Shown here piece by piece: positions 1 through 10,434 of a DNA stretch of 10,777 nucleotides. This DNA comes from a virus: the UHGV virus genome UHGV-0117503. One strand, written 5' to 3'. The notes beneath the pieces are model-generated. The model had not been told where the DNA came from. It did not search any database and worked only from the letters and a program-made list of their open reading frames with translations. The stretch's first letter is position 1, and every line of letters starts with the position of its first letter. The position numbers and the translations under genes are program-made.

Positions 1-262
1 TTCGCTCCGCTGCAACTGCAGGAAACCTACGACAACAGCGGGCTGAACATCGGATTCCCGGACGCCGAACTGACGGGCGTTCTGATCTGCGTGGACGTCA
101 CCGAAGCGGTCGTCGACGAAGCGATCGGGCACAGGGCCAACCTGATCGTGTCGCATCACCCGCTGCTATTCCACCCGTTACGCCGGATCGTCGGGGCCGA
201 CGCTTCGCAACGGATCGCCGCGCGCTGCCTGATCGCCGGCATCTCGCTCTATGCCGCGCACA
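1..262 (+). CDS. Nif3-family (YbgI/YqfO-like) protein, internal fragment; open at the window start and lacking its own C-terminus
   Basis: Frame 1 is open from nt 1 and reads ...YDNSGLNIGFPDAELTGVLICVDVTEAVVDEAIGHRANLIVSHHPLLFHPLRRIV...ISLYAAHTN, matching the Nif3 signature from memory (WDNxGL, HHPLIF, LYxAHTNLD). My own count gives about 65% G+C over nt 1-240, unlike the rest of the window. The end coordinate is approximate. Confidence 0.5.
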
Positions 263-523
263 CCAATCAGGCTCTTGCAAACTTCGCAGGTTTCGTTGTG
301 GCTGTGAGCTTTAGCTTCTTCGCGAATGCAAAATTCACATTCAAAGCTTCGACTACAACGATGCGCTACATGTTATATGTAGGATTCATGGGAACACTGA
401 GTGCTACTGTTGGATGGGCTGCCGATAAATGTGCACTTCCTCACTCTTGTCACCTTCTCCGCCATCAGCCTGGTTTGCGGTTTCGTCTATTCAAAGTTCA
501 TTGTCTTTAGGGATGCGAAATGA
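263..523 (+). pseudogene. gtrA: gtrA-like bactoprenol-glucose flippase remnant: N-terminus replaced and body frameshifted
   Basis: From about nt 263 the same frame reads QALANFAGFVVAVSFSFFANAKFTFKASTTTMRYMLYVGFMGTLSATVGWAADKCALP, which matches GtrA as I recall it. The expected C-terminus [26 protein letters not shown] is in the adjacent frame (open 401-523), ending at TGA 521-523 in an ATGA overlap with the gtrB start. The frame switch lies at about nt 439-445. Confidence 0.55.
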
Positions 524-1431
524 AGATATCTCTTGTAGTTCCTGTCTTCAATGAAGAAGAAGCAATACCAATTTTTTATAAAACGGTACGTGAATTCGAA
601 GAGTTGAAGCCATATGAAGTGGAAATTGTTTTCATAAATGACGGAAGCAAAGACTCTACGGAGTCAATTATTAATGCTCTGGCTGTTTCAGATCCCCTAG
701 TTGTTCCGCTGTCATTTACACGCAACTTTGGTAAAGAACCAGCATTGTTTGCAGGATTAGACCATGCAACAGGTGATGCCGTTATTCCTATTGATGTTGA
801 CCTGCAAGACCCGATTGAGGTTATTCCTCATCTTATTGAAAAGTGGCAGGCAGGCGCTGATATGGTGCTTGCTAAACGTTCGGATCGTTCAACCGATGGA
901 AAATTAAAACGAAAAACAGCTGAGTGGTTCTACAAACTTCACAATAAAATAAGTAATCCAAAGATCGAGGACAATGTTGGCGACTTTAGACTAATGTCCA
1001 GACATGTTGTTGAGAATATTAAACTTCTACCAGAACGAAATCTATTCATGAAAGGAGTTCTAAGCTGGGTTGGTGGAGAAATAAGTATTGTTGAGTATGC
1101 CAGAGCGGAACGCATTGCGGGGACGACTAAATTTAATGGCTGGAAATTATGGAACTTAGCTCTTGAGGGTATAACTGGTTTTTCAACATTTCCTCTACGA
1201 ATGTGGACATATATAGGATTATTTGTTGCAACAATATCATTCATGTACGGAGCATGGATGATATTGGATAAAATTTTATTTGGAAACAACGTACCAGGTT
1301 ATCCCTCACTTCTTGTTTCTATTCTTTTTCTTGGTGGGATTCAATTGATTGGCATTGGAGTCCTAGGTGAATATATAGGAAGAATCTATATTGAAACCAA
1401 AAAAAGACCTAGATACCTTATAAAAAAATAG
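520..1431 (+). CDS. gtrB: GtrB, bactoprenol glucosyltransferase (GT2 family)
   Basis: The 303-aa ORF starts [29 protein letters not shown], contains DGSKD and a DVDLQD-type GT2 motif, and ends in two C-terminal transmembrane helices and ...IETKKRP. It is near-identical over its length to enterobacterial prophage GtrB/YfdH as I remember it. Confidence 0.93.
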
Positions 1432-2980: not shown

Positions 2981-4957
2981 TCACCTCCATTTAAACCGAG
3001 GTGAATATTCCCCGTTATTGAATCTTCCTATACTTACCTGTATTGTCGCCGGAGAATCAGAAAGAACCTCGGTGCTATGCAATGATAGTATAAGTGATGA
3101 TGATTCTATATCTCTATCTGCTTCGACCACATAACCATAATCTCGTTCTGGCTCTGTAAAATAAGCTATTGGTTTTCCGTTTGCTGCAATGGTAAATCTT
3201 CCACCAACAAATTTACCCTTGAACATAACATGTATTTTTATCCGAGTAACTCCCTTCGGTAAAACACAACCAGCATTTAATGATGCTGTAGAGTTTATAT
3301 TGAAATCTTTCCTTATCACTGTGTATGGAATTGCATATAAAGCTTCAGCAAAGTTTGATTGAGACTGATACTCTGTCGCAGCAATAGAGCTCCCCCCCAT
3401 AATTCTAAATCCTCCAACACCGGAGAACACACTATTAAAAGCATCCACAGCTTTCGTAAAGTTACCAATACAAACAGGTGTTTCTGCATCATTAATGAAT
3501 TGTTCCCTTGAATACAATGTCACACTGTTTATATATGTACTTTTATAACCACCAATATCATCAGGGCTTAAAAATCCATACCCATTGGAACCATCAGATA
3601 CGCCATTAAATTCTGTATAATAGCTACAAAATTCGTTAGATGATCTTGGAGATGTCTCAATCCATCCAAATCCAAAATTTCTCTCTGACTGAATATTGCT
3701 ATAAGTACACCCACTACTCCGCGTTATAAGGCCTGCGCCACTATAGCGCGTCGCTGAGTCTGGTGATGGGTCAAAATCACCATTGCGACCATTTGTGTGT
3801 GTACGTATACGTAAAAAACTAACAGAATTTACAGCCAAATCATCAGTTTCTCCTTGAGTAGGATAACCAATAACAACTCCGCGCCCATAGTTATCATGTG
3901 CAACTATTGTTCCAAATGAACAGAACCAAGACTGATAAACTGATATGCCGACGACACGAGCATTTATGGCTGTAATATTGTCGCAATGTGACTCATTTGT
4001 AAAATATCTAAAATAAAATCCATTTGTCGCCTTATTATCACAATCAGAAATTATATTTGTAATTCTTACTGAGCTTACATCTTCAGTTGGTGTAACTCCA
4101 ATTGGAGAGCGAGAGCATCTAATAACAGCCTTTTTAATTGCAACATCCCCAATCCATTTAATGGTTGTAGCAAATCTATTACCTGCTCGCAGAGAATTTC
4201 CATATCCTCTCATATCCAAGCCATTTGGAGGCACAAACTCATCTGTAATTCCAATAACACCAGCTGGAAGGATTAAAGGTAGTTTATTATCAGATGCGAA
4301 TTTAGCAGCACTGGTTAACTCATTAATTGAATCTTTTTCTCCATTTAAATTAACCCCCCACCATTTTAATAGAACTTCTCCATTGATATTTCGTTTCCAC
4401 CGCCTCCCAATTGCGTCAATAAGTATTGTTCCTCCATTATCTTGAGATGTAGAATCATACTTATCAATTTCAAATATTCCATTTCCACCATCAAATATAT
4501 TTCGCACACCATATACATAGCATCTATGCATATTCCCGCTATAATTTCTAATATCTTCGTAATTTGCTCCACCTATATATCCCAAACCGAAGCTTTGAGA
4601 TAATTGAACTTTAAATTGATCAGGTTCATACTTCAGCACATTCGGAAAATAAAACTGCTGAGCACCGTATGCATCATAAACAGCCATAGAATGGCCTTGC
4701 ACAGTTACGAACTTGGCAATCTGTCCGTTATATACCGGGTAACCAGCAGCGTTAATGATGATTGGTTGCGAAACAGGAACGTGAGAGCCGTCTTCGTTCT
4801 CCATATAAACCTGAATCTGGTTTTCTGGATTTACGGGGTCCGTGTCAATTTTACCGATATAAATTTTGCCATTGGCTACCGCTTTAAAAGAACGAGCCAT
4901 AGTGAAGAGTTGCGAAGGCATGCTTACCACAACATTGGCATTTATTGAATCTGTCAT
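2981..4957 (-). CDS. Tailspike protein: P22/Sf6-like head-binding N-terminal domain with a divergent receptor-binding (probable beta-helix depolymerase) domain
   Basis: The N-terminus [51 protein letters not shown]...[27 protein letters not shown] matches the conserved P22/Sf6 tailspike N-terminal domain from memory. The start is set at the internal ATG (4957..4955) that gives MTD..., not the upstream start at 5002 in the ORF track. The remaining ~540 aa are rich in G/N/S/T/I/V. Confidence 0.88.
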
Positions 4958-4982
4958 TTTAATTTCTCTATATGTTAAGCAA

Positions 4983-5016
4983 GCAATATTCATTGCTAGC
5001 ATGTTTTTTGTATAAT
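4983..5016 (+). promoter_or_regulatory. Putative sigma70 promoter for the HNH gene, in the divergent tailspike/HNH intergenic region
   Basis: A consensus TATAAT sits at 5011-5016 directly preceded by TTG, with a small palindrome GCAAT-ATTC-ATTGC at 4983-4996 upstream. No convincing -35 element at 17-bp spacing. Confidence 0.3.
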
Positions 5017-5044
5017 GAGTGAACTTTATTTAAAGGTGGTTAAC

Positions 5045-5554
5045 ATGAACTGGAACGAAGTATTCGTATTAAAAGACGATGGACTCCTGTACTGGAGTGA
5101 CCAATATCTTTCAAGACCCAAAATGTTCAATATTTCTAAAGAAAAGCCTACAGGACATATATTCAAGGACAAGAACAGGAAAACATCTTATATAATTATC
5201 AGGTATCAAGATAAAATATACGCCGCCCATAGGATAATATGGGAAATGTTTTATGGTGAAATCCCTTCAGGAATGCAAATTGACCATAAAGATGGTAATG
5301 GGTTAAATAATTCAATAGACAACCTGCGTCTAGTTAGTCTCGGTGAAAACCTAAAAAACAAATCTAAATACACAAACAATACATCTGGGTGCGCAGGTGT
5401 TTCATGGCATAAGACCCATAAAAAGTGGGTGGCATATATTAGCGACGCAGGGAAGCGCATTAATCTCGGATACTTTAAGTGTCTCGATGATGCAATTGCT
5501 GTAAGGCGTGATGCTGAAAAGACCTATGGTTATCATGAGAATCATGGTAGGTGA
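5045..5554 (+). CDS. HNH endonuclease with a C-terminal AP2-like DNA-binding domain (homing-endonuclease-like)
   Basis: Motif IDHKDGNGLNNSIDNLRLVS is HNH-like, followed by GVSWHKTHKKWVAYIS...KRINLGYFKCLDDAIAVRRDAEKTYG, which is AP2-like. The start is set at ATG 5045, which has AAGGTGG 5 nt upstream; the ORF track begins at 5015. Confidence 0.8.
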   Translation: MNWNEVFVLKDDGLLYWSDQYLSRPKMFNISKEKPTGHIFKDKNRKTSYIIIRYQDKIYAAHRIIWEMFYGEIPSGMQIDHKDGNGLNNSIDNLRLVSLGENLKNKSKYTNNTSGCAGVSWHKTHKKWVAYISDAGKRINLGYFKCLDDAIAVRRDAEKTYGYHENHGR

Positions 5555-5685
5555 TATCTGACATTTCATTGCTCCAGACGAATGATATGATGCAACCATG
5601 ATGTGATTGCATACCGAAATGGTACTATTGAGTATTTATCCAGTAGGTTACGATGCCATTCCACCCAACTGGTGAGGCATCAAGG

Positions 5686-5946
5686 ATGTACAGCAAATAC
5701 GACGAGGCGCAGTTTCACTTGAGACTTCCGCATGAACTCCACGCGAAAATTAAACAGCGCGCGAAGATGAATAACAGGTCGCTGAACTCAGAGATAATTG
5801 CAGCGATTGAAGAATCATTGGCTAAACAAAGCTCTGCATCAGTTTACATTGACGATGCAGAGCGTATGGCAGAACAACAATCTGATATGGTTAAGAAAAT
5901 TGTCTTTGATACGCTCAAAGAGCTATATAAAAAAGACAGCAGCTAA
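5686..5946 (+). CDS. mnt: Mnt-like ribbon-helix-helix repressor (P22 immI-type)
   Basis: The C-terminal half DDAERMAEQQSDMVKKIVFDTLKELYKKDSS closely matches P22 Mnt (...NDAERLADEQSELVKKMVFDTLKDLYKK) as I recall it, and the N-terminal region FHLRLPHELHAKIKQRAKMNNRSLNSEI is RHH-like. The start is set at ATG 5686 (GAGG 8 nt upstream), not the track start at 5653. Confidence 0.8.
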   Translation: MYSKYDEAQFHLRLPHELHAKIKQRAKMNNRSLNSEIIAAIEESLAKQSSASVYIDDAERMAEQQSDMVKKIVFDTLKELYKKDSS

Positions 5947-5966: not shown

Positions 5967-6044
5967 ATGCAAAGAGATATGCTGAATATTGCGTTCTACA
6001 TATTTGGTTTTTGCACGTTCCTGGTGTTTGCGAAGCTATTCTGA
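5967..6044 (+). CDS. Hypothetical 25-aa hydrophobic peptide (possible single-pass membrane protein)
   Basis: GGAGGA at 5958-5963 is followed by ATG at 5967. The ORF encodes MQRDMLNIAFYIFGFCTFLVFAKLF and stops at TGA 6042-6044, 21 nt after mnt on the same strand. It is absent from the ORF track because of its size; it is unproven. Confidence 0.25.
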   Translation: MQRDMLNIAFYIFGFCTFLVFAKLF

Positions 6045-7199
6045 CAACGCATCAGACTTGGCACCTTGAGTCAGGGCGTTAATGGCCTTTTGCGCCTGCT
6101 GCATGGCTTTCTCAAACGCTGTTGATCCGCGTGGGGTGTTTGCCATTCGGAGCATTGCATTTCTGAATGGCTCGCTCTCATAGGCGCGAGTAAGAAGTCC
6201 GTAGCTTACCGCTGCGCCAGTTGTCGCCGGGTTCATTGCCGTCCCATATCCGATAATGAACGGGATGGTTTGCTGCCCTGTTGGTGTTGTTACTGCTGCT
6301 TTTGCAGCCTGCTGCGTGGATTGCAGGTAGTTTTTCAATCCTTTCAGATAAGCGGCTTCATGACCTTTAAATGTGATGCCAGTCTGGTTTTGCAGGATAT
6401 TAAGCTGCCGAAGGAACTGGTCAGGGGATCCGCCAGATTTCTCCATCGCCTTTCCAATGATGCCATTGCGCATTTGCGCCCTGCCAACACGACCAACTGA
6501 GTTATACAGCGTCTTAATTTCAGATTTGTTCTTGCTGAATAGCATGTTGTTGACAACTTCCGGCGTCAGGTCGCCTTTCATGAGAACATTCTTCAGCCTG
6601 GTATTCTTTAGTTTCGCCGCTTCGTCAGCGTAGACGGCATTGGCCTGCTGATATTTACGAAGAGTATCATTGCCAAGATTCTGACCAATGGCACCATTGA
6701 TATCGTCGGTCATCGCCTTGTAAACTCGCTGAATGGCAGCATCGGAACGGTTTGGTAACACTGGTCGCTCACCCTTCACGTCCATTCTGAACTGGCTGCG
6801 CAGATCGCTTAATTGCTTCAAATCCAGATTGACCGGACCATCAGGACCAGCATTGCGAACAAGCTCATCACGATATGACTGAAGTTTTGAAATAGTCTCG
6901 TTATCAGCCACCTTACCAAGCTTCTGCAGATTAGATATCTCAGTATCAATCTGCTGAATTGCTCGCGCAGGCTGAATGTTTACTCCAGCCATAGCATTCT
7001 GAACCTGCTCCAGTCGATTACCGGCGGCACGCCGAATTCCTGATGTTTTCGCTTTAAGGCTGTCAATAACAACTGCCGGATCGTACTCGCCGAATTTATC
7101 AGCAAATCTCTGCACCAACTGACTTCTCGCTTCCTGTTGCGTTGCTCTCATTCCGCTTGTGCCAGCCAGGGGGATATTTTCTGCTGTGGTCTGCGCCAT
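6036..7199 (-). CDS. Virion ejection/internal protein, probably the C-terminal part of the lytic-transglycosylase protein encoded upstream (387-aa ORF)
   Basis: Long ORF in the late-gene orientation. Its frame is open upstream of the ATG at 7199 as far as a stop at 7334..7332 and reads protein-like there (GAIAPEAQQAIRFAEREGVPLHTTDLLQPTSRVGK). It overlaps the upstream ORF by 52 nt. Confidence 0.6.
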   Translation of the reverse strand: MAQTTAENIPLAGTSGMRATQQEARSQLVQRFADKFGEYDPAVVIDSLKAKTSGIRRAAGNRLEQVQNAMAGVNIQPARAIQQIDTEISNLQKLGKVADNETISKLQSYRDELVRNAGPDGPVNLDLKQLSDLRSQFRMDVKGERPVLPNRSDAAIQRVYKAMTDDINGAIGQNLGNDTLRKYQQANAVYADEAAKLKNTRLKNVLMKGDLTPEVVNNMLFSKNKSEIKTLYNSVGRVGRAQMRNGIIGKAMEKSGGSPDQFLRQLNILQNQTGITFKGHEAAYLKGLKNYLQSTQQAAKAAVTTPTGQQTIPFIIGYGTAMNPATTGAAVSYGLLTRAYESEPFRNAMLRMANTPRGSTAFEKAMQQAQKAINALTQGAKSDALSE

Positions 7200-8413
7200 T
7201 TTCCCGACGCGGGAAGTAGGCTGTAACAGGTCTGTGGTGTGCAGAGGAACTCCTTCACGCTCTGCAAATCTGATAGCCTGCTGCGCTTCTGGCGCAATAG
7301 CACCACGAACGCCACGATACGTCCGGCAGCGTTAATAGCACCGCCAGCCAACACACCAACGCCTAAATCGGTGGCGAGTGCTTCCGCATCATCTTTCGCA
7401 CTATTTGCAGCAAGTGATCCAACTGCGTTTTCAGCGAGAAGGCGAGTTGCCCCCTGAGCAATTCGACCAGCAAGTGTTGGTGCCTGTGTTGCCGCTCTCT
7501 CAACGCCAGCAGGAGTGAGGTAAGGCAACGCTTCAGCAAATACCCTTCCCTCTGTCGTTTGTGGAGTCAGCGCGCCTTGCTGAAGGCCAAAGTCCTGCTC
7601 TAATCCCTGCGTTGTTACTCGTGGCGCTGGTTGATATGTACCATCGCCAATGCCGAGTTTACCGCCAGCCCAAGCCGCCGCGCTTGTTACAGCATCAGTG
7701 AGTTCAGCAGGTATGTTCGCTACGTTGATTCCTGCCTGTAGTAAGCCGCGCCCGGTTTCAGCAAGTCCATTACCAAGGTCAGACATTATTCCGCCTTGTT
7801 GCTGAACAGGTTTCGGTGCGACAGAACTTACGGGTTGAGGTGGCTGCTGACTGGCTGCCTGCTGCTCAATCTGAGCAAATGGATTATTTGGGTCTGACTG
7901 CACACCTGATGCCGATACTTGTTCGGATGACTGTACTTCCAGTTGTGCAAACGGGTTGTTAGGGTCTTGCTGAGGATGTACCTTTGCAGAGGTGGCGCGC
8001 TGTTCGACTGTTGAGTCTGTCACCGGGTCACCCGCCCATTGAGCAAAGCGATCATCAACGTAACCGCGGCCTTCAGGTCCTGGCGTATATTCACCACGCT
8101 TTGCCTTCATAACGTTGCCGGGACCGTCGTGATAAGCCTGAAGAGCGTCACGCCAGTTACCAAACTGCTGGTACATCTTTGCCAGATAGCGCGCGCCAGC
8201 GTCAGCCTGATATTCGGGGTTTTGCATTTGCTCATCGGTATAACCCATATCACGCCATGTCCCAGGCATGACCTGAGTCAATCCTACAGCCCCGGCGGAG
8301 CTTACTGCGGCAGGGTTGTAAGAAGACTCCTTGGCACCCAGTGCAGTCATCAACCCTTCTGGCACACCGTAACGTGCGCCAGCCTGCTCTAACAAATCAC
8401 GGTAATTAGCCAT
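7148..8413 (-). CDS. Virion ejection/internal protein with an N-terminal lytic transglycosylase (SLT) domain; the last ~55 codons of this frame are probably out of frame
   Basis: N-terminal GAKESSYNPAAVSSAGAVGLTQVMPGTW...YLAKMY is a classic SLT catalytic-region signature. A Q/P-rich linker carries a duplicated DPNNPFAQ motif. The C-terminal stretch of this frame (RIVAFVVLLRQKRSRLSDLQSVKEFLCTPQTCYSLLPASGKWRRPQQ...) looks like non-coding translation. Confidence 0.75.
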   Translation of the reverse strand: MANYRDLLEQAGARYGVPEGLMTALGAKESSYNPAAVSSAGAVGLTQVMPGTWRDMGYTDEQMQNPEYQADAGARYLAKMYQQFGNWRDALQAYHDGPGNVMKAKRGEYTPGPEGRGYVDDRFAQWAGDPVTDSTVEQRATSAKVHPQQDPNNPFAQLEVQSSEQVSASGVQSDPNNPFAQIEQQAASQQPPQPVSSVAPKPVQQQGGIMSDLGNGLAETGRGLLQAGINVANIPAELTDAVTSAAAWAGGKLGIGDGTYQPAPRVTTQGLEQDFGLQQGALTPQTTEGRVFAEALPYLTPAGVERAATQAPTLAGRIAQGATRLLAENAVGSLAANSAKDDAEALATDLGVGVLAGGAINAAGRIVAFVVLLRQKRSRLSDLQSVKEFLCTPQTCYSLLPASGKWRRPQQKISPWLAQAE

Positions 8414-9211
8414 TTACTGCCCCAAAGATGGAAGATATCCGTAGCGATTAATGAAGTCGATTGACAGCTCGGGGTGCTGCTTCAGGTAATCTATAGAAGC
8501 CTGAGGCGCTTCCACTCGCTTGATACCGTTTTGCTGAACGTACTTACCAACCGCCTCATTACGCTTCTGGTTGAGCGTGTTCAGGATGACGCCAGCGTTG
8601 CGACGAAAGGACTCCTCGCTCTGCGAGTTCTGCAGCGAACCAACAGCCTGGTCGAGCTTTTTGCCCTCGGCATCAGAAAGTGCGCCCATGCCTCGCATGG
8701 CCTGAACCGCTGTCAGGTATGCTTGTGATTTAAAGGTATCAAGTCGTGCCTGAGTGTCTGCAGCCTGTGAGCCTGGAACGTTGGGGATTACTCCACGTAA
8801 GCCTGTAATGCTCTTAAGTGAAGGAGAACTAACGATATCGTTCAGAGTGAACATGCTGGTTGTGAGGGTGTTGATGCCGTCTTTGTAGCCATCATTTAGC
8901 GCTTGCTGCTTCTGCTGCAACTGCTGGTTGTTGGCTGCTATGCGGCTCTGTATTTCCTGGCGCTTCAGGTCGTTAGTTTCTGCTGATAGCATCCGGTCAA
9001 GGCGCTTATTTTCGTTGTTAATGCGGTTTGTTTCTGCGTCCAGATTAATGCGCTGCTGACCTAAATTCGCCTGGATATCTTGCCCGCGCATTGTGATTGC
9101 CTGATTCCGAGCGGCGGTTTGCGAATCCAGATCCTGACCGCGCATGGTAACCTGGCGACCCTGCATTTTATCCTGTAGGTCAAAGTATTTTTCGGGTCCG
9201 AGACTGTTCAT
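8414..9211 (-). CDS. Virion ejection/internal protein (265 aa) with a Q-rich coiled-coil-like region
   Basis: Its start ATG overlaps the stop of the upstream gene (ATGA at 9208-9211), and its stop TAA (8416..8414) directly abuts the ATG of the SLT protein. The content RIAANNQQLQQKQQALNDGYKDG is typical of phage internal proteins. It sits between the gene-7 and gene-16 positions of P22. Confidence 0.7.
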   Translation of the reverse strand: MNSLGPEKYFDLQDKMQGRQVTMRGQDLDSQTAARNQAITMRGQDIQANLGQQRINLDAETNRINNENKRLDRMLSAETNDLKRQEIQSRIAANNQQLQQKQQALNDGYKDGINTLTTSMFTLNDIVSSPSLKSITGLRGVIPNVPGSQAADTQARLDTFKSQAYLTAVQAMRGMGALSDAEGKKLDQAVGSLQNSQSEESFRRNAGVILNTLNQKRNEAVGKYVQQNGIKRVEAPQASIDYLKQHPELSIDFINRYGYLPSLGQ

Positions 9212-9732
9212 CCCAGGTGATCGAACTGCCGCGGGTTCTGTTGGTACATCTGAGCGACGTCCTGAGGATTAACGCCAACACGAGCTAACTCACCGGCGTT
9301 GTTTTGCAGCCATGATTGCATTGCTTCTGGAGACGATGACGCAAGGCGTGCGCCAGCCGCTAAGGTGCCGATAGAATTACGCTGATCTTCATCAATGAAT
9401 CCCATGCCTTTACGAACGGATTCAATCTGGTCTGGATATTGAGTAGCCAACTGACGCAAAGCACTGCGATCACCAGACGCATAAGCATTAGCGTACGCCT
9501 GCTGAAATTCTTTCTGCCGCTGAGCCTGCTTTTCCTGCTGAAACACCCCTGCAATACCTGAAAGGCCTTGCAAAGCAGTCAGCCCAACATTGTTAGCGCC
9601 TGAACGCTCAATATCATTGTTCTGCCTGATAAGCTGAAGCGTATTGCCGATGTCATTTACGCTCGGAGCGTTTGAGTTGACGCCGCCGATACCAGCCAAC
9701 AATCCGCCGTTTGTTCCTTGCCAAGTAGCCAT
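9208..9732 (-). CDS. Virion ejection/internal protein (174 aa)
   Basis: ATG at 9732..9730 has AAGGGG upstream. The product is G/A/Q/N-rich, and the gene is tightly coupled to its neighbours on both sides. Confidence 0.7.
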   Translation of the reverse strand: MATWQGTNGGLLAGIGGVNSNAPSVNDIGNTLQLIRQNNDIERSGANNVGLTALQGLSGIAGVFQQEKQAQRQKEFQQAYANAYASGDRSALRQLATQYPDQIESVRKGMGFIDEDQRNSIGTLAAGARLASSSPEAMQSWLQNNAGELARVGVNPQDVAQMYQQNPRQFDHLG

Positions 9733-9741
9733 GATTACCCC

Positions 9742-10434
9742 TTAAAACAACGAGCCAAGCAATCCGATACCAGCACCAATGCCAGCGCCCCAAGGCGTTG
9801 ATGTTCCCAAAAGGCTGGCAAGACCTGCACCGGCAATCGCACCAGACGTGCCACCGCTAATTGCTGTCTGAAGACTTGATGGTTTATTGGCATTAGCAGC
9901 GGAAAGAGCTGCGCTTTGCTGTGCAATGCTGCTCATGTTGTTGGCGTACGTCTGCCCGGCGTTTGCCTGACCTTGCAGCGCACCAAGCCCAACGTTTGCC
10001 AGATTGTTGTAATTGCTCATCTGATTTGATAACCAAGACTGACCGAGTGTCGGCGCGATCGTAGCCAGTTGATTGCTTGTGGCTGTCGAACCAAGTCCAC
10101 CCGTCGCCTCCGCAGCAGCAAGACTCTGGTAACGCGCCTGCCCTGCAAGGTCTTTATACTGCTGAGAGTTGTAATACTGATTAAGTGCCTGCCCCTGACC
10201 TTCTAAACTGGAAAGGTTCTGAAGCTGGTTAACATACTGCTCCGCAAGCGGCGTGAACGGAGCAAGGTTTTTCATGATCGTCTGCCACTGCTGATTTTGC
10301 AGGTCTGCGGCATACTTCTGAGCTTCTGCTGCATACTTTGCGCTTTTATCAGAGCTACCACCTTTCCCGCCTTTTTCAGGGCACCAAGGTTCCTCGCCGC
10401 GCAGTTTTCTGCCCAGCTTAAATGCATATAACAT
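9742..10434 (-). CDS. gp7-like ejection protein (P22 gene 7 family)
   Basis: The 230-aa ORF begins MLYAFKLGRKLRGEEP..., which matches the start of P22 gp7 (229 aa) as I remember it. It has GGGAGA upstream of its ATG and a G/A-rich hydrophobic C-terminus ...GAGIGAGIGLLGSLF. Confidence 0.75.
   Translation of the reverse strand: MLYAFKLGRKLRGEEPWCPEKGGKGGSSDKSAKYAAEAQKYAADLQNQQWQTIMKNLAPFTPLAEQYVNQLQNLSSLEGQGQALNQYYNSQQYKDLAGQARYQSLAAAEATGGLGSTATSNQLATIAPTLGQSWLSNQMSNYNNLANVGLGALQGQANAGQTYANNMSSIAQQSAALSAANANKPSSLQTAISGGTSGAIAGAGLASLLGTSTPWGAGIGAGIGLLGSLF

Follow-up and report, generated by a model that had tools for sequence, protein, structure and literature searches.

A gene for a phage ejection protein with a lytic-transglycosylase domain appears in this DNA as two overlapping open reading frames, and the question is whether this split reflects a programmed shift of the ribosome, a genuine mutation or a fault in the data. 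The stretch analysed, referred to here as the window, is 10,777 nt long and is a metagenome contig (ENA ERZ651849 NODE_4094, cov_2.537773) from a gut sample. Its ORF listing and its sequence agree with a preliminary description in which frames of 421 and 387 codons overlap by 52 nt (7148..7199) in different registers, with the downstream frame open back to a TAA at 7334..7332 and without an ATG, GTG or TTG codon ahead of the ATG at 7199; its shift with respect to the upstream frame is −1 (equivalently +2). The last ~55 upstream codons, described there as junk-like, number 56 by our count, such that the upstream ORF consists of 365 native codons (...AINAAGR) followed by 56 that are out of frame (IVAFVVLL...LAQAE). 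Features of the locus and its surroundings are listed in Table 1.

Table 1. Positions of the split ejection gene, its lesion and neighbouring features in the window.
Feature	Position	Strand	Details
Foreign contig end	1..247	plus	61-69% GC; Nif3/YbgI-like gene fragment fused in frame to gtrA
Third private deletion	440..441		8 nt, CAATTGGA (ejection-gene orientation), inside gtrA
Tailspike head-binding domain	within 2981..5002		
Mnt/Arc	5653..5946		
Native frame, C-terminal 427 codons of the ejection protein	6036..7319	minus	gp16-like part
Listed downstream ORF	7199..6036	minus	387 aa; native frame, without a start of its own until ATG 7199
ATGA stop/start overlap	7148..7151	minus	upstream TGA overlaps the in-frame downstream-frame ATG 7151..7149
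Slippery-type heptamer GGGAAAA	7199..7205	minus	X_XXY_YYZ register (G_GGA_AAA) in the shifted upstream frame
Out-of-frame read-through	7318..7151	minus	codons 366-421, tail of the upstream ORF
Deletion junction	7320/7319	minus	16 nt, TGGATTAGGTGCTGCT, absent relative to relatives; encode G-L-G-A-A plus one base
Upstream ORF	8413..7148	minus	421 aa; codons 1-365 native; TGA stop 7150..7148
Native parts of the upstream ORF			SLT lytic-transglycosylase domain (residues 7-110), Q/P-rich linker, start of the gp16-like region
gp20-type gene, C-terminal fragment	8414..9211	minus	265 aa; phrog_2534 positions 182-435
gp20-type gene, N-terminal fragment	9208..9732	minus	174 aa; Inj_translocase, E=1.2e-55; phrog_2534 positions 1-175
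gp7	9742..10434		PF25688, E=9.6e-134

Alignment of the window with L001, L002 and the near-identical contigs L103-L110 locates a 16-nt gap at the boundary between the native and the out-of-frame codons, and putting TGGATTAGGTGCTGCT back yields one ORF of 797 aa, in agreement with WP_320555216.1 at 794 of 798 codon positions. The two-ORF pattern is not a matter of chance; it is exactly what is expected from a 16-nt deletion at this point in a gene that forms one ORF of 2394 nt in relatives. A lesion near 7300-7330 splitting a gene of about 800 aa had been anticipated, and its place and the size of the protein stand, although the single-base indel that had been proposed gives way to the longer deletion. 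Of the three causes suggested at the time, the programmed shift falls away with the finding that the homologues are single ORFs; sequencing error and pseudogenising mutation remain, with the balance tilting towards error in view of the contig's 2.5x coverage and its other demonstrable faults. The ATGA overlap, at which gene callers begin a 371-aa product (called gene 3627-4742, window 7151..6036), is an accidental by-product of the frame shift.

The intact gene encodes a virion ejection protein of a P22-like (Lederbergvirus) prophage, in which an N-terminal SLT domain is fused to a DNA-transfer protein of the P22-gp16/Sf6-gp13 type, and the profile matches divide across both ORFs as expected of the split SLT-domain protein that had been described. 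The Pfam scan places SLT (PF01464) at residues 7-110 of the upstream ORF (E=1.5e-25), there is a match to E. coli Slt70 (E=4.5e-10), and the translation contains GAKESS, GLTQVMP and AYHDGPG, which we take to be lytic-transglycosylase motifs, including the catalytic Glu in the E-S motif. Both profile and motifs are those of a family-1 lytic transglycosylase, an enzyme activity that is predicted here. The gp16-type profile phrog_770 ('DNA transfer protein', 668 positions) is itself cut in two: its positions 3-203 correspond to upstream residues 108-368 (E=1.4e-53), positions 257-666 to the whole downstream ORF (E=1.6e-157), and positions 203-257 to the out-of-frame stretch, so that the window has no single uninterrupted ORF over the whole profile, as its relatives do. 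The upstream ORF also matches phrog_21143 (E=1.1e-144), and for both profiles the match is confined to its residues 108-368. PF26808 (Phage_P22_gp16) is among the precomputed matches of the 371-aa product and of the 797-aa relatives; our own Pfam scan did not return it. The gene also has the position expected in an ejection cluster, following gp7 and gp20 homologues and preceding the immunity and tailspike region.

The adjacent gp20-type gene is likewise in two pieces. Its N-terminal fragment lacks 12 nt without loss of frame (TCGGCGAATTTG, between 9225 and 9224), a deletion private to the contig, and ends at a TGA that arises where 1 nt is lost from the G-run 9214..9212; its C-terminal fragment starts at a native internal Met in an ATGA overlap. 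The same gp20 split is found in L103-L106, L108 and L110; it is a lossless fission common to the whole lineage.

Elsewhere the ejection gene is intact at the site of the lesion. Among the top 30 E. coli genome matches, 29 have it as one CDS of 2394 or 2388 nt, and in a sample of 53 E. coli genome matches extending across the site, every one has about 16 extra nucleotides (15-17). All 76 complete IMG/VR ORFs, counted in contigs with the intact 32-mer, read straight across, and six near-identical contigs that differ from the window by 0-2 mismatches in up to 10.5 kb hold the 16 nt. A 28-nt sequence across the junction gave no match in genome_contigs, viral_contigs or metagenome_contigs, and the exact 421-, 371- and 174-aa products occur only in the window contig itself (L005) and in a sister assembly, L004. 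Apart from L004, we found no homologous locus with two overlapping genes of these ends and no homologue that ends in the RIVAFVVLL frame. No complete E. coli genome with the exact lineage was found, as none reaches a coverage of 80%. Other disruptions of this gene occur in other genomes: a relative, the Logan contig L108, has a private 7-nt deletion of its own, and the gene is a frameshifted pseudogene in strain Z1324SEC0014 and a truncated one in strain LR-03.

While the lesion, its restriction to this sample and the other faults of the contig are shown by the data, we infer that the 16-nt gap is most likely a sequencing or assembly artefact of low coverage and not fixed in the bacterial genome, a reading to which we give a probability of about 0.6. 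The absence of 16 nt moves the frame by −1, so that 56 nonsense codons follow the first 365 and the last 427 have no proper start. The gap itself is probably a fault of very-low-coverage metagenome data, arising from error-bearing or chimeric reads or from a faulty join where coverage is thin; the gene would then be intact in the actual prophage lineage. Besides its coverage of 2.54, the contig has other errors that can be demonstrated. Its first 247 nt are an inter-genome chimera: this segment matches DUF34_NIF3 (E=1.8e-28) and TIGR00486, the E. coli matches to the window all start at 248, and where the window has the foreign end, the relatives and the sister assembly go on with the 5′ end of gtrA and intS. 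In addition, a run of 69 Ns in the sister assembly begins at exactly the base of the window's 8-nt deletion.

The distribution of differences within the lineage points the same way. Compared with L103-L110, the window shows no mismatch in 8969 aligned positions (against L105) and one in 10566 (against L103, contig k141_76569 of ERZ27255934), and it has three private deletions, of 8, 12 and 16 nt; the other lineage contigs combined have a single private indel and a single private substitution over ~60 kb. This combination of three private deletions of 8-16 nt with no more than one private substitution over 10.5 kb is far from a normal mutation spectrum, and the excess of deletions is limited to one sample, with 2.5x coverage and a proven chimeric end. 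A Lander-Waterman estimate at 2.54x k-mer coverage, assuming reads of 90-150 nt and k=55, gives 1-5 uncovered gaps with a mean of 14-38 nt in 10.5 kb, which is close to what is observed. The sister assembly carries both the 16-nt and the 12-nt gap and has a 7-nt deletion of its own, 10 nt away from the one mismatch private to the window; the anomalies of the two are discordant at 986-1003. Because they have an identical contig start and differ by one mismatch, L004 and the window contig probably come from the same sample and the same reads; a literature search for the sample and assembly accessions gave no result.

The sequence context of the deletions does not discriminate between explanations. 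Microhomology, as read off the alignments, amounts to 1, 3, 1 and 4 nt at the four deletion contexts, including 1 nt (T) at 7320/7319, and a random junction averages 0.67 nt. Neither a hairpin nor a repeat is indicated as a cause, as none of the four contexts, folded as DNA, does better than shuffled sequences. A false-overlap join by the assembler is unsupported as a mechanism; by inspection there is no repeat of at least 6 nt at the junction and no overlap of 6-10 nt spaced 16 nt apart.

Several points count against an artefact. The same 16-nt and 12-nt gaps are present in the second assembly, and the junction therefore probably exists in one read or more, which makes it more than the whim of one assembler run; the common origin of the two assemblies is itself only probable; the junction has no repeat that could support a false overlap; the private 7-nt deletion in the ejection gene of L108 indicates that real small deletions may occur in this lineage; and multi-base deletions are untypical of Illumina errors. 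The presence of the gap in both assemblies and the deletion in L108 also lend weight to the second-ranked explanation, that a real and recent deletion, of microhomology type, has turned the gene into a pseudogene in the strain of one sample and persists under relaxed selection in a remnant that makes no virions. The element is indeed already dead, as the 1-nt deletion that splits gp20 is present in six near-identical contigs from other runs, an IS3-family element lies inside intS, and in L103-L108 a second IS truncates the coat gene, of which only the final 172 codons are left; this IS also terminates L004. The flanking IS elements were assigned to the IS3 family from their terminal sequences, an HTH_Tnp_1 match and their thousands of E. 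coli genome matches, and NCBIfam gave no match on the short IS end fragments. The independent lesions of the ejection gene in L108, Z1324SEC0014 and LR-03 also fit such decay. However, the skewed deletion spectrum described above and the absence of the lesion from every other sample or collection searched weigh against it, and we regard a genuine deletion as a tentative alternative, appreciably less probable than an artefact. If it were real, it would add a further neutral lesion to a prophage remnant that is flanked by IS elements and may persist for its gtrABC O-antigen modification genes. No open question is affected by these findings.

A third explanation, that the two frames are functionally connected by programmed −1 ribosomal frameshifting at G_GGA_AAA or form a two-gene arrangement re-initiated at the ATGA, is highly improbable. 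The preliminary description had raised a programmed shift, and the corresponding search for a slippery heptamer found one, GGGAAAA, the sole sequence of this type in the overlap, which stands in the proper register of the upstream frame and would require just the −1 slip that is needed; the stop/start overlap could likewise be thought suited to re-initiation. However, it is the deletion alone that brings the heptamer into register, the same bases in intact genes being read GTC GGG AAA ATG, and the two-frame arrangement occurs in no homologue examined. Programmed frameshifting was rejected because all of these homologues hold the 16 nt and read straight through in one frame. The heptamer also lacks a stimulatory structure downstream, where the minimum free energy of −14.7 kcal/mol is weaker than that of shuffled sequences (z=+1.06) and the heptamer itself is paired. 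Even after a slip there, 46 native residues would be replaced by 41 nonsense ones; moreover, the split falls inside the gp16-like region (phrog_770 203-257) and not at the SLT/gp16 boundary near residue 205, and the host element lacks genes needed for building a virion. A real deletion with continued function of the broken gene, as an SLT fragment plus a re-initiated C-terminal gp16 fragment or by occasional −1 slippage, is hardly to be expected, and if true would offer a snapshot of ejection-protein modules being split and reshuffled in P22-like phages.

With an artefact as the preferred reading, we suggest that 6036..8413 be annotated as a single disrupted gene for a P22-gp16-family ejection protein with an SLT domain. 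More generally, where coverage is 2-3x, a split gene in a metagenome contig calls for recourse to the reads before it is taken for a pseudogene or a recoding site.

The closest known counterparts are an unannotated ORF of phage IME10 (NC_019501 31064-33457) and E. coli WP_320555216.1, named 'lytic transglycosylase domain-containing protein' and found in P22-like (Lederbergvirus) prophages of E. coli, both with 96-98% nucleotide identity over the whole 2.4 kb; relative to these, the window gene lacks the 16 nt and is read as two ORFs. IME10 and the E. coli prophages have the same gene order, gp14, gp7, gp20, ejection gene, mnt/arc, tailspike and gtrCBA, which in the window appears reversed. Beyond these, the gene shares 94.6% identity over nucleotides 676-2378 with gene 13 of Shigella phage Sf6 (gp13, 665 aa) and ~74% with its counterpart in P22-like Salmonella phages (P22 gp16, 609 aa). 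Sf6 gp13 and P22 gp16 are inner-membrane ejection proteins of the same family as the window gene (phrog_770, PF26808), but both lack the N-terminal SLT domain. The first 618 nt, encoding that domain, are 99.7% identical to the gene for the 'transglycosylase / lytic tail fiber protein' of phage Sf101 (found also in phages Dewey and Huey), whereas the rest of that protein consists of another gp16-type module. The window gene is a mosaic with an Sf101-like head and an Sf6-like body. A similar architecture in outline is seen in T7 gp16 (1318 aa), an internal core and ejection protein whose N-terminal LT domain cuts peptidoglycan during ejection and is followed by a part that reaches the membrane and cytoplasm (PMC8954989), although there is no sequence relation outside the SLT fold and the window protein is much smaller. 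The gene itself is an ordinary phage ejection gene.

The two overlapping minus-strand open reading frames of the window had been described as a single SLT-domain ejection protein split by a frameshift, and the account of their arrangement is accurate. They overlap by 52 nt, with the second in frame -1 relative to the first; three-frame translation confirms that the downstream frame can be read back without interruption to a TAA at 7334..7332 and has no ATG, GTG or TTG before its ATG at 7199, and that the end of the 421-aa ORF, called junk-like, is a tail (IVAFVVLLRQKRSRL...) that differs from the remaining protein. The preliminary description attributed the split to a single-base indel near 7300-7330, which is correct as to place but not as to size: alignment to relatives shows that 16 nt (TGGATTAGGTGCTGCT) are missing between 7320 and 7319, the sole length difference in the alignment, with one base of microhomology at the junction. 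Restoring them yields one ORF of 797 aa, close to the roughly 800 aa expected of the joined protein, which is identical at 794 of 798 codon positions to the E. coli protein WP_320555216.1 and matches the phage IME10 ORF (NC_019501 31064-33457) at 791; the upstream ORF therefore has 365 native codons followed by 56 that are out of frame.

Coordinates of features in the window and, where named, in related contigs
Feature	Position	Strand	Basis
Upstream ORF, 421 aa	8413..7148	-	ORF listing of window
Downstream ORF, 387 aa	7199..6036	-	ORF listing of window
Native frame of last 427 codons	7319..6036	-	restoration of 16 nt
Private deletion, 16 nt	7320/7319	-	comparison with lineage
Private deletion, 12 nt	9225/9224	-	comparison with lineage
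Private deletion, 8 nt, inside gtrA	441/440		comparison with lineage
Only private substitution (G)	1003		comparison with lineage
gp20 split site	9208..9214; L103 5340..5360	-	comparison with intact gene
HNH_3 endonuclease ORF with weak AP2-like domain, between Mnt/Arc and tailspike genes	5015..5554	+
IS flanks	L103 1..134 and 15324..15544; starts of L104, L105, L108; end of L004

Exact-product look-up identifies the window contig as NODE_4094_length_10777_cov_2.537773 of ENA record ERZ651849, a SPAdes-style name in which 'cov' denotes the k-mer coverage. A sister assembly, L004 (ERZ28575161, FENG16-1_SAMEA4378249_METAG-scaffold_3858), begins at the same base, and over 10.3 kb the two differ by a single mismatch, a gap of 7 nt and 69 consecutive Ns. 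We infer that both derive from one set of reads; no other contig on record carries the 421-, 371- and 174-aa products. Six contigs of other runs (L103-L106, L108 and L110) are near-identical to the window, with one mismatch in 10566 positions for L103 (contig k141_76569 of ERZ27255934) and none in 8969 aligned positions for L105. All six contain the 16 nt, and the 797-aa gene is intact in all except L108, which has a 7-nt deletion.

Relative to this lineage the window has exactly three private deletions and one private substitution. The 12-nt deletion (TCGGCGAATTTG) is in frame, has TCG microhomology and removes 4 aa from the N-terminal gp20 fragment (174 aa vs 178); the window and L004 alone carry it, as is true of the 16-nt deletion. 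The 8-nt deletion in gtrA (440..441) begins at the exact base where L004 turns into 69 Ns, a coincidence that points to a thin or branched place in the read data, and a 7-nt deletion specific to L004 (AGTCTAA, with AGTC microhomology, in the 986..1003 region), which splits gtrB in that contig, lies 10 nt from the window's substitution. The two assemblies thus handle the same thin spots in different ways. The contig is also demonstrably chimeric: positions 1..247 (+) are not prophage but part of a Nif3/YbgI-like gene (61-69% GC; DUF34_NIF3, E=1.8e-28) joined in frame to gtrA, in place of the gtrA 5' end and intS seen in L004 and all relatives, which makes ORF 91..510 a two-organism chimera.

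We favor a sequencing or assembly artefact as the origin of the 16-nt gap, with a probability of about 0.6. Over 10.5 kb the window departs from its near-identical relatives by three multi-base deletions and no more than one substitution, compared with a single private indel and a single private substitution in ~60 kb for the other lineage members combined, a pattern that hardly resembles natural divergence. The excess of deletions is limited to one sample, whose k-mer coverage is ~2.5x and in which a chimera is proven, and a Lander-Waterman estimate for the contig (assuming k=55 and 90-150-nt reads) predicts 1-5 uncovered gaps with a mean of 14-38 nt, resembling the 8, 12 and 16 nt observed; chimeric or error-bearing reads at single-read depth are a possible source. 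A real private deletion of 16 nt is less likely. Several points speak against an artefact: the 16- and 12-nt gaps are common to both assemblies, multi-base deletions of this kind are atypical of classical Illumina errors, and we identified no assembler step that would produce them. Sequence inspection and DNA folding revealed neither a repeat of at least 6 nt nor a hairpin at the junction. Whether artefact or real deletion, the distinction is inconsequential.

That the two ORFs form a functional or programmed arrangement is extremely improbable, and programmed frameshifting, among the causes offered initially, is contradicted by the presence of the 16 nt elsewhere: the intact 32-mer spanning the site is present in 97 IMG/VR contigs, whose complete ORFs all read through uninterrupted (76 of 76; 665 aa, n=55; 797 aa, n=16; 759 aa, n=4; 660 aa, n=1), and a spread sample of E. 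coli genome hits to 6900..7700 includes 53 that cross the site, each with ~16 extra nt (15-17). The 28-nt junction sequence has no occurrence in the contig collections searched (genome, viral and metagenome). The split is neither conserved nor programmed, and is a lesion rather than a new arrangement. A slippery heptamer, which the preliminary description proposed looking for, is present (G_GGA_AAA at 7205..7199) and in register for the -1 shift needed, but we reject it as a programmed site; its register is a by-product of the deletion, and intact genes read GTC GGG AAA ATG. RNA folding showed no stimulatory structure downstream, and even after a -1 slip here 41 residues would be wrong. Gene callers start the 371-aa product at an ATGA overlap (7151..7148), which is accidental as well.

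The gene order is that of the late right arm in a Lederbergvirus (P22-like) prophage, one that integrates at argW, beside intS. On the minus strand, gp14 (partial), gp7 (PF25688), the gp20-type gene and the SLT ejection gene are followed by mnt/arc and the HNH endonuclease (plus strand), after which come tailspike, gtrC, gtrB and gtrA. The HNH_3 ORF, for which gene callers use a later start (102 aa), resembles a homing-type HNH gene that stands alone within the immunity/tailspike region. Independent lesions of the ejection gene are seen elsewhere: a prophage remnant in E. coli LR-03 (L003 11187..12494) has a copy truncated ~24 nt upstream of where the window has its deletion, the copy in Z1324SEC0014 (L111 1501..3893) is a frameshifted pseudogene, and the deletion private to L108, at ~8040, leaves 692 + 66 aa.

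The element of this lineage is a dead remnant. The phage-derived part of L103 is limited to 135..15323 (~15.2 kb) and is IS-bounded; on one side an IS truncates the coat gene, leaving its last 172 codons, and on the other an IS3-family element interrupts intS, with no portal, terminase or early genes between the two. L004 terminates in the same IS as the lineage contigs. Since gtrABC and the tailspike gene are intact, the remnant may be kept for O-antigen modification. Every lineage member has the gp20-type gene in two pieces, the result of one lost G (GGGG to GGG), and this split is common to the six near-identical contigs of other runs. The first piece ends in '...DHLG' (stop) and the second begins with 'MNSLG...', their stop and start overlapping as ATGA at the native internal Met, and the pieces (178 aa + 265 aa) make up the intact 443-aa protein with zero residues lost. 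Such a lossless fission might in principle have left the gene functional. In L107 (~100..140) and L109 (~120..160), from isolate assemblies GCA_900195855.1 and GCA_037197045.1, the same 265-aa product is called from another cause, an IS3-family end that meets the gp20 gene 20 nt before that internal Met.

Megablast with 6036..8413 gives matches to 80% or more of the region in phage IME10 and in 52 complete E. coli genomes; of the best 30 genome matches, 29 span 2394 or 2388 nt (vs 2378 nt in the window) and are annotated as a single CDS, 'lytic transglycosylase domain-containing protein'. The phrog_770 profile ('DNA transfer protein') is divided between both ORFs (positions 3-203 and 257-666), so the family profiles agree with one gene broken by a deletion. 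The gene is a mosaic, the first 618 nt, the SLT head (PF01464 at residues 7-110, E=1.5e-25), being 99.7% identical to the Sf101 'transglycosylase', and the body (nucleotides 676-2378) sharing 94.6% identity with gene 13 of Sf6, the equivalent of gp16. Its product belongs to the P22-gp16/Sf6-gp13 family of ejection proteins and carries an SLT domain in addition, a combination already known from annotations in IME10-like prophages and Sf101. Judged by family membership and by its analogues T7 gp16 and P22 gp16 (PMC8954989), the intact protein would exit the capsid on infection, its SLT domain would cleave peptidoglycan, and the remainder would help to build the inner-membrane section of the DNA conduit; in design it parallels T7 gp16.
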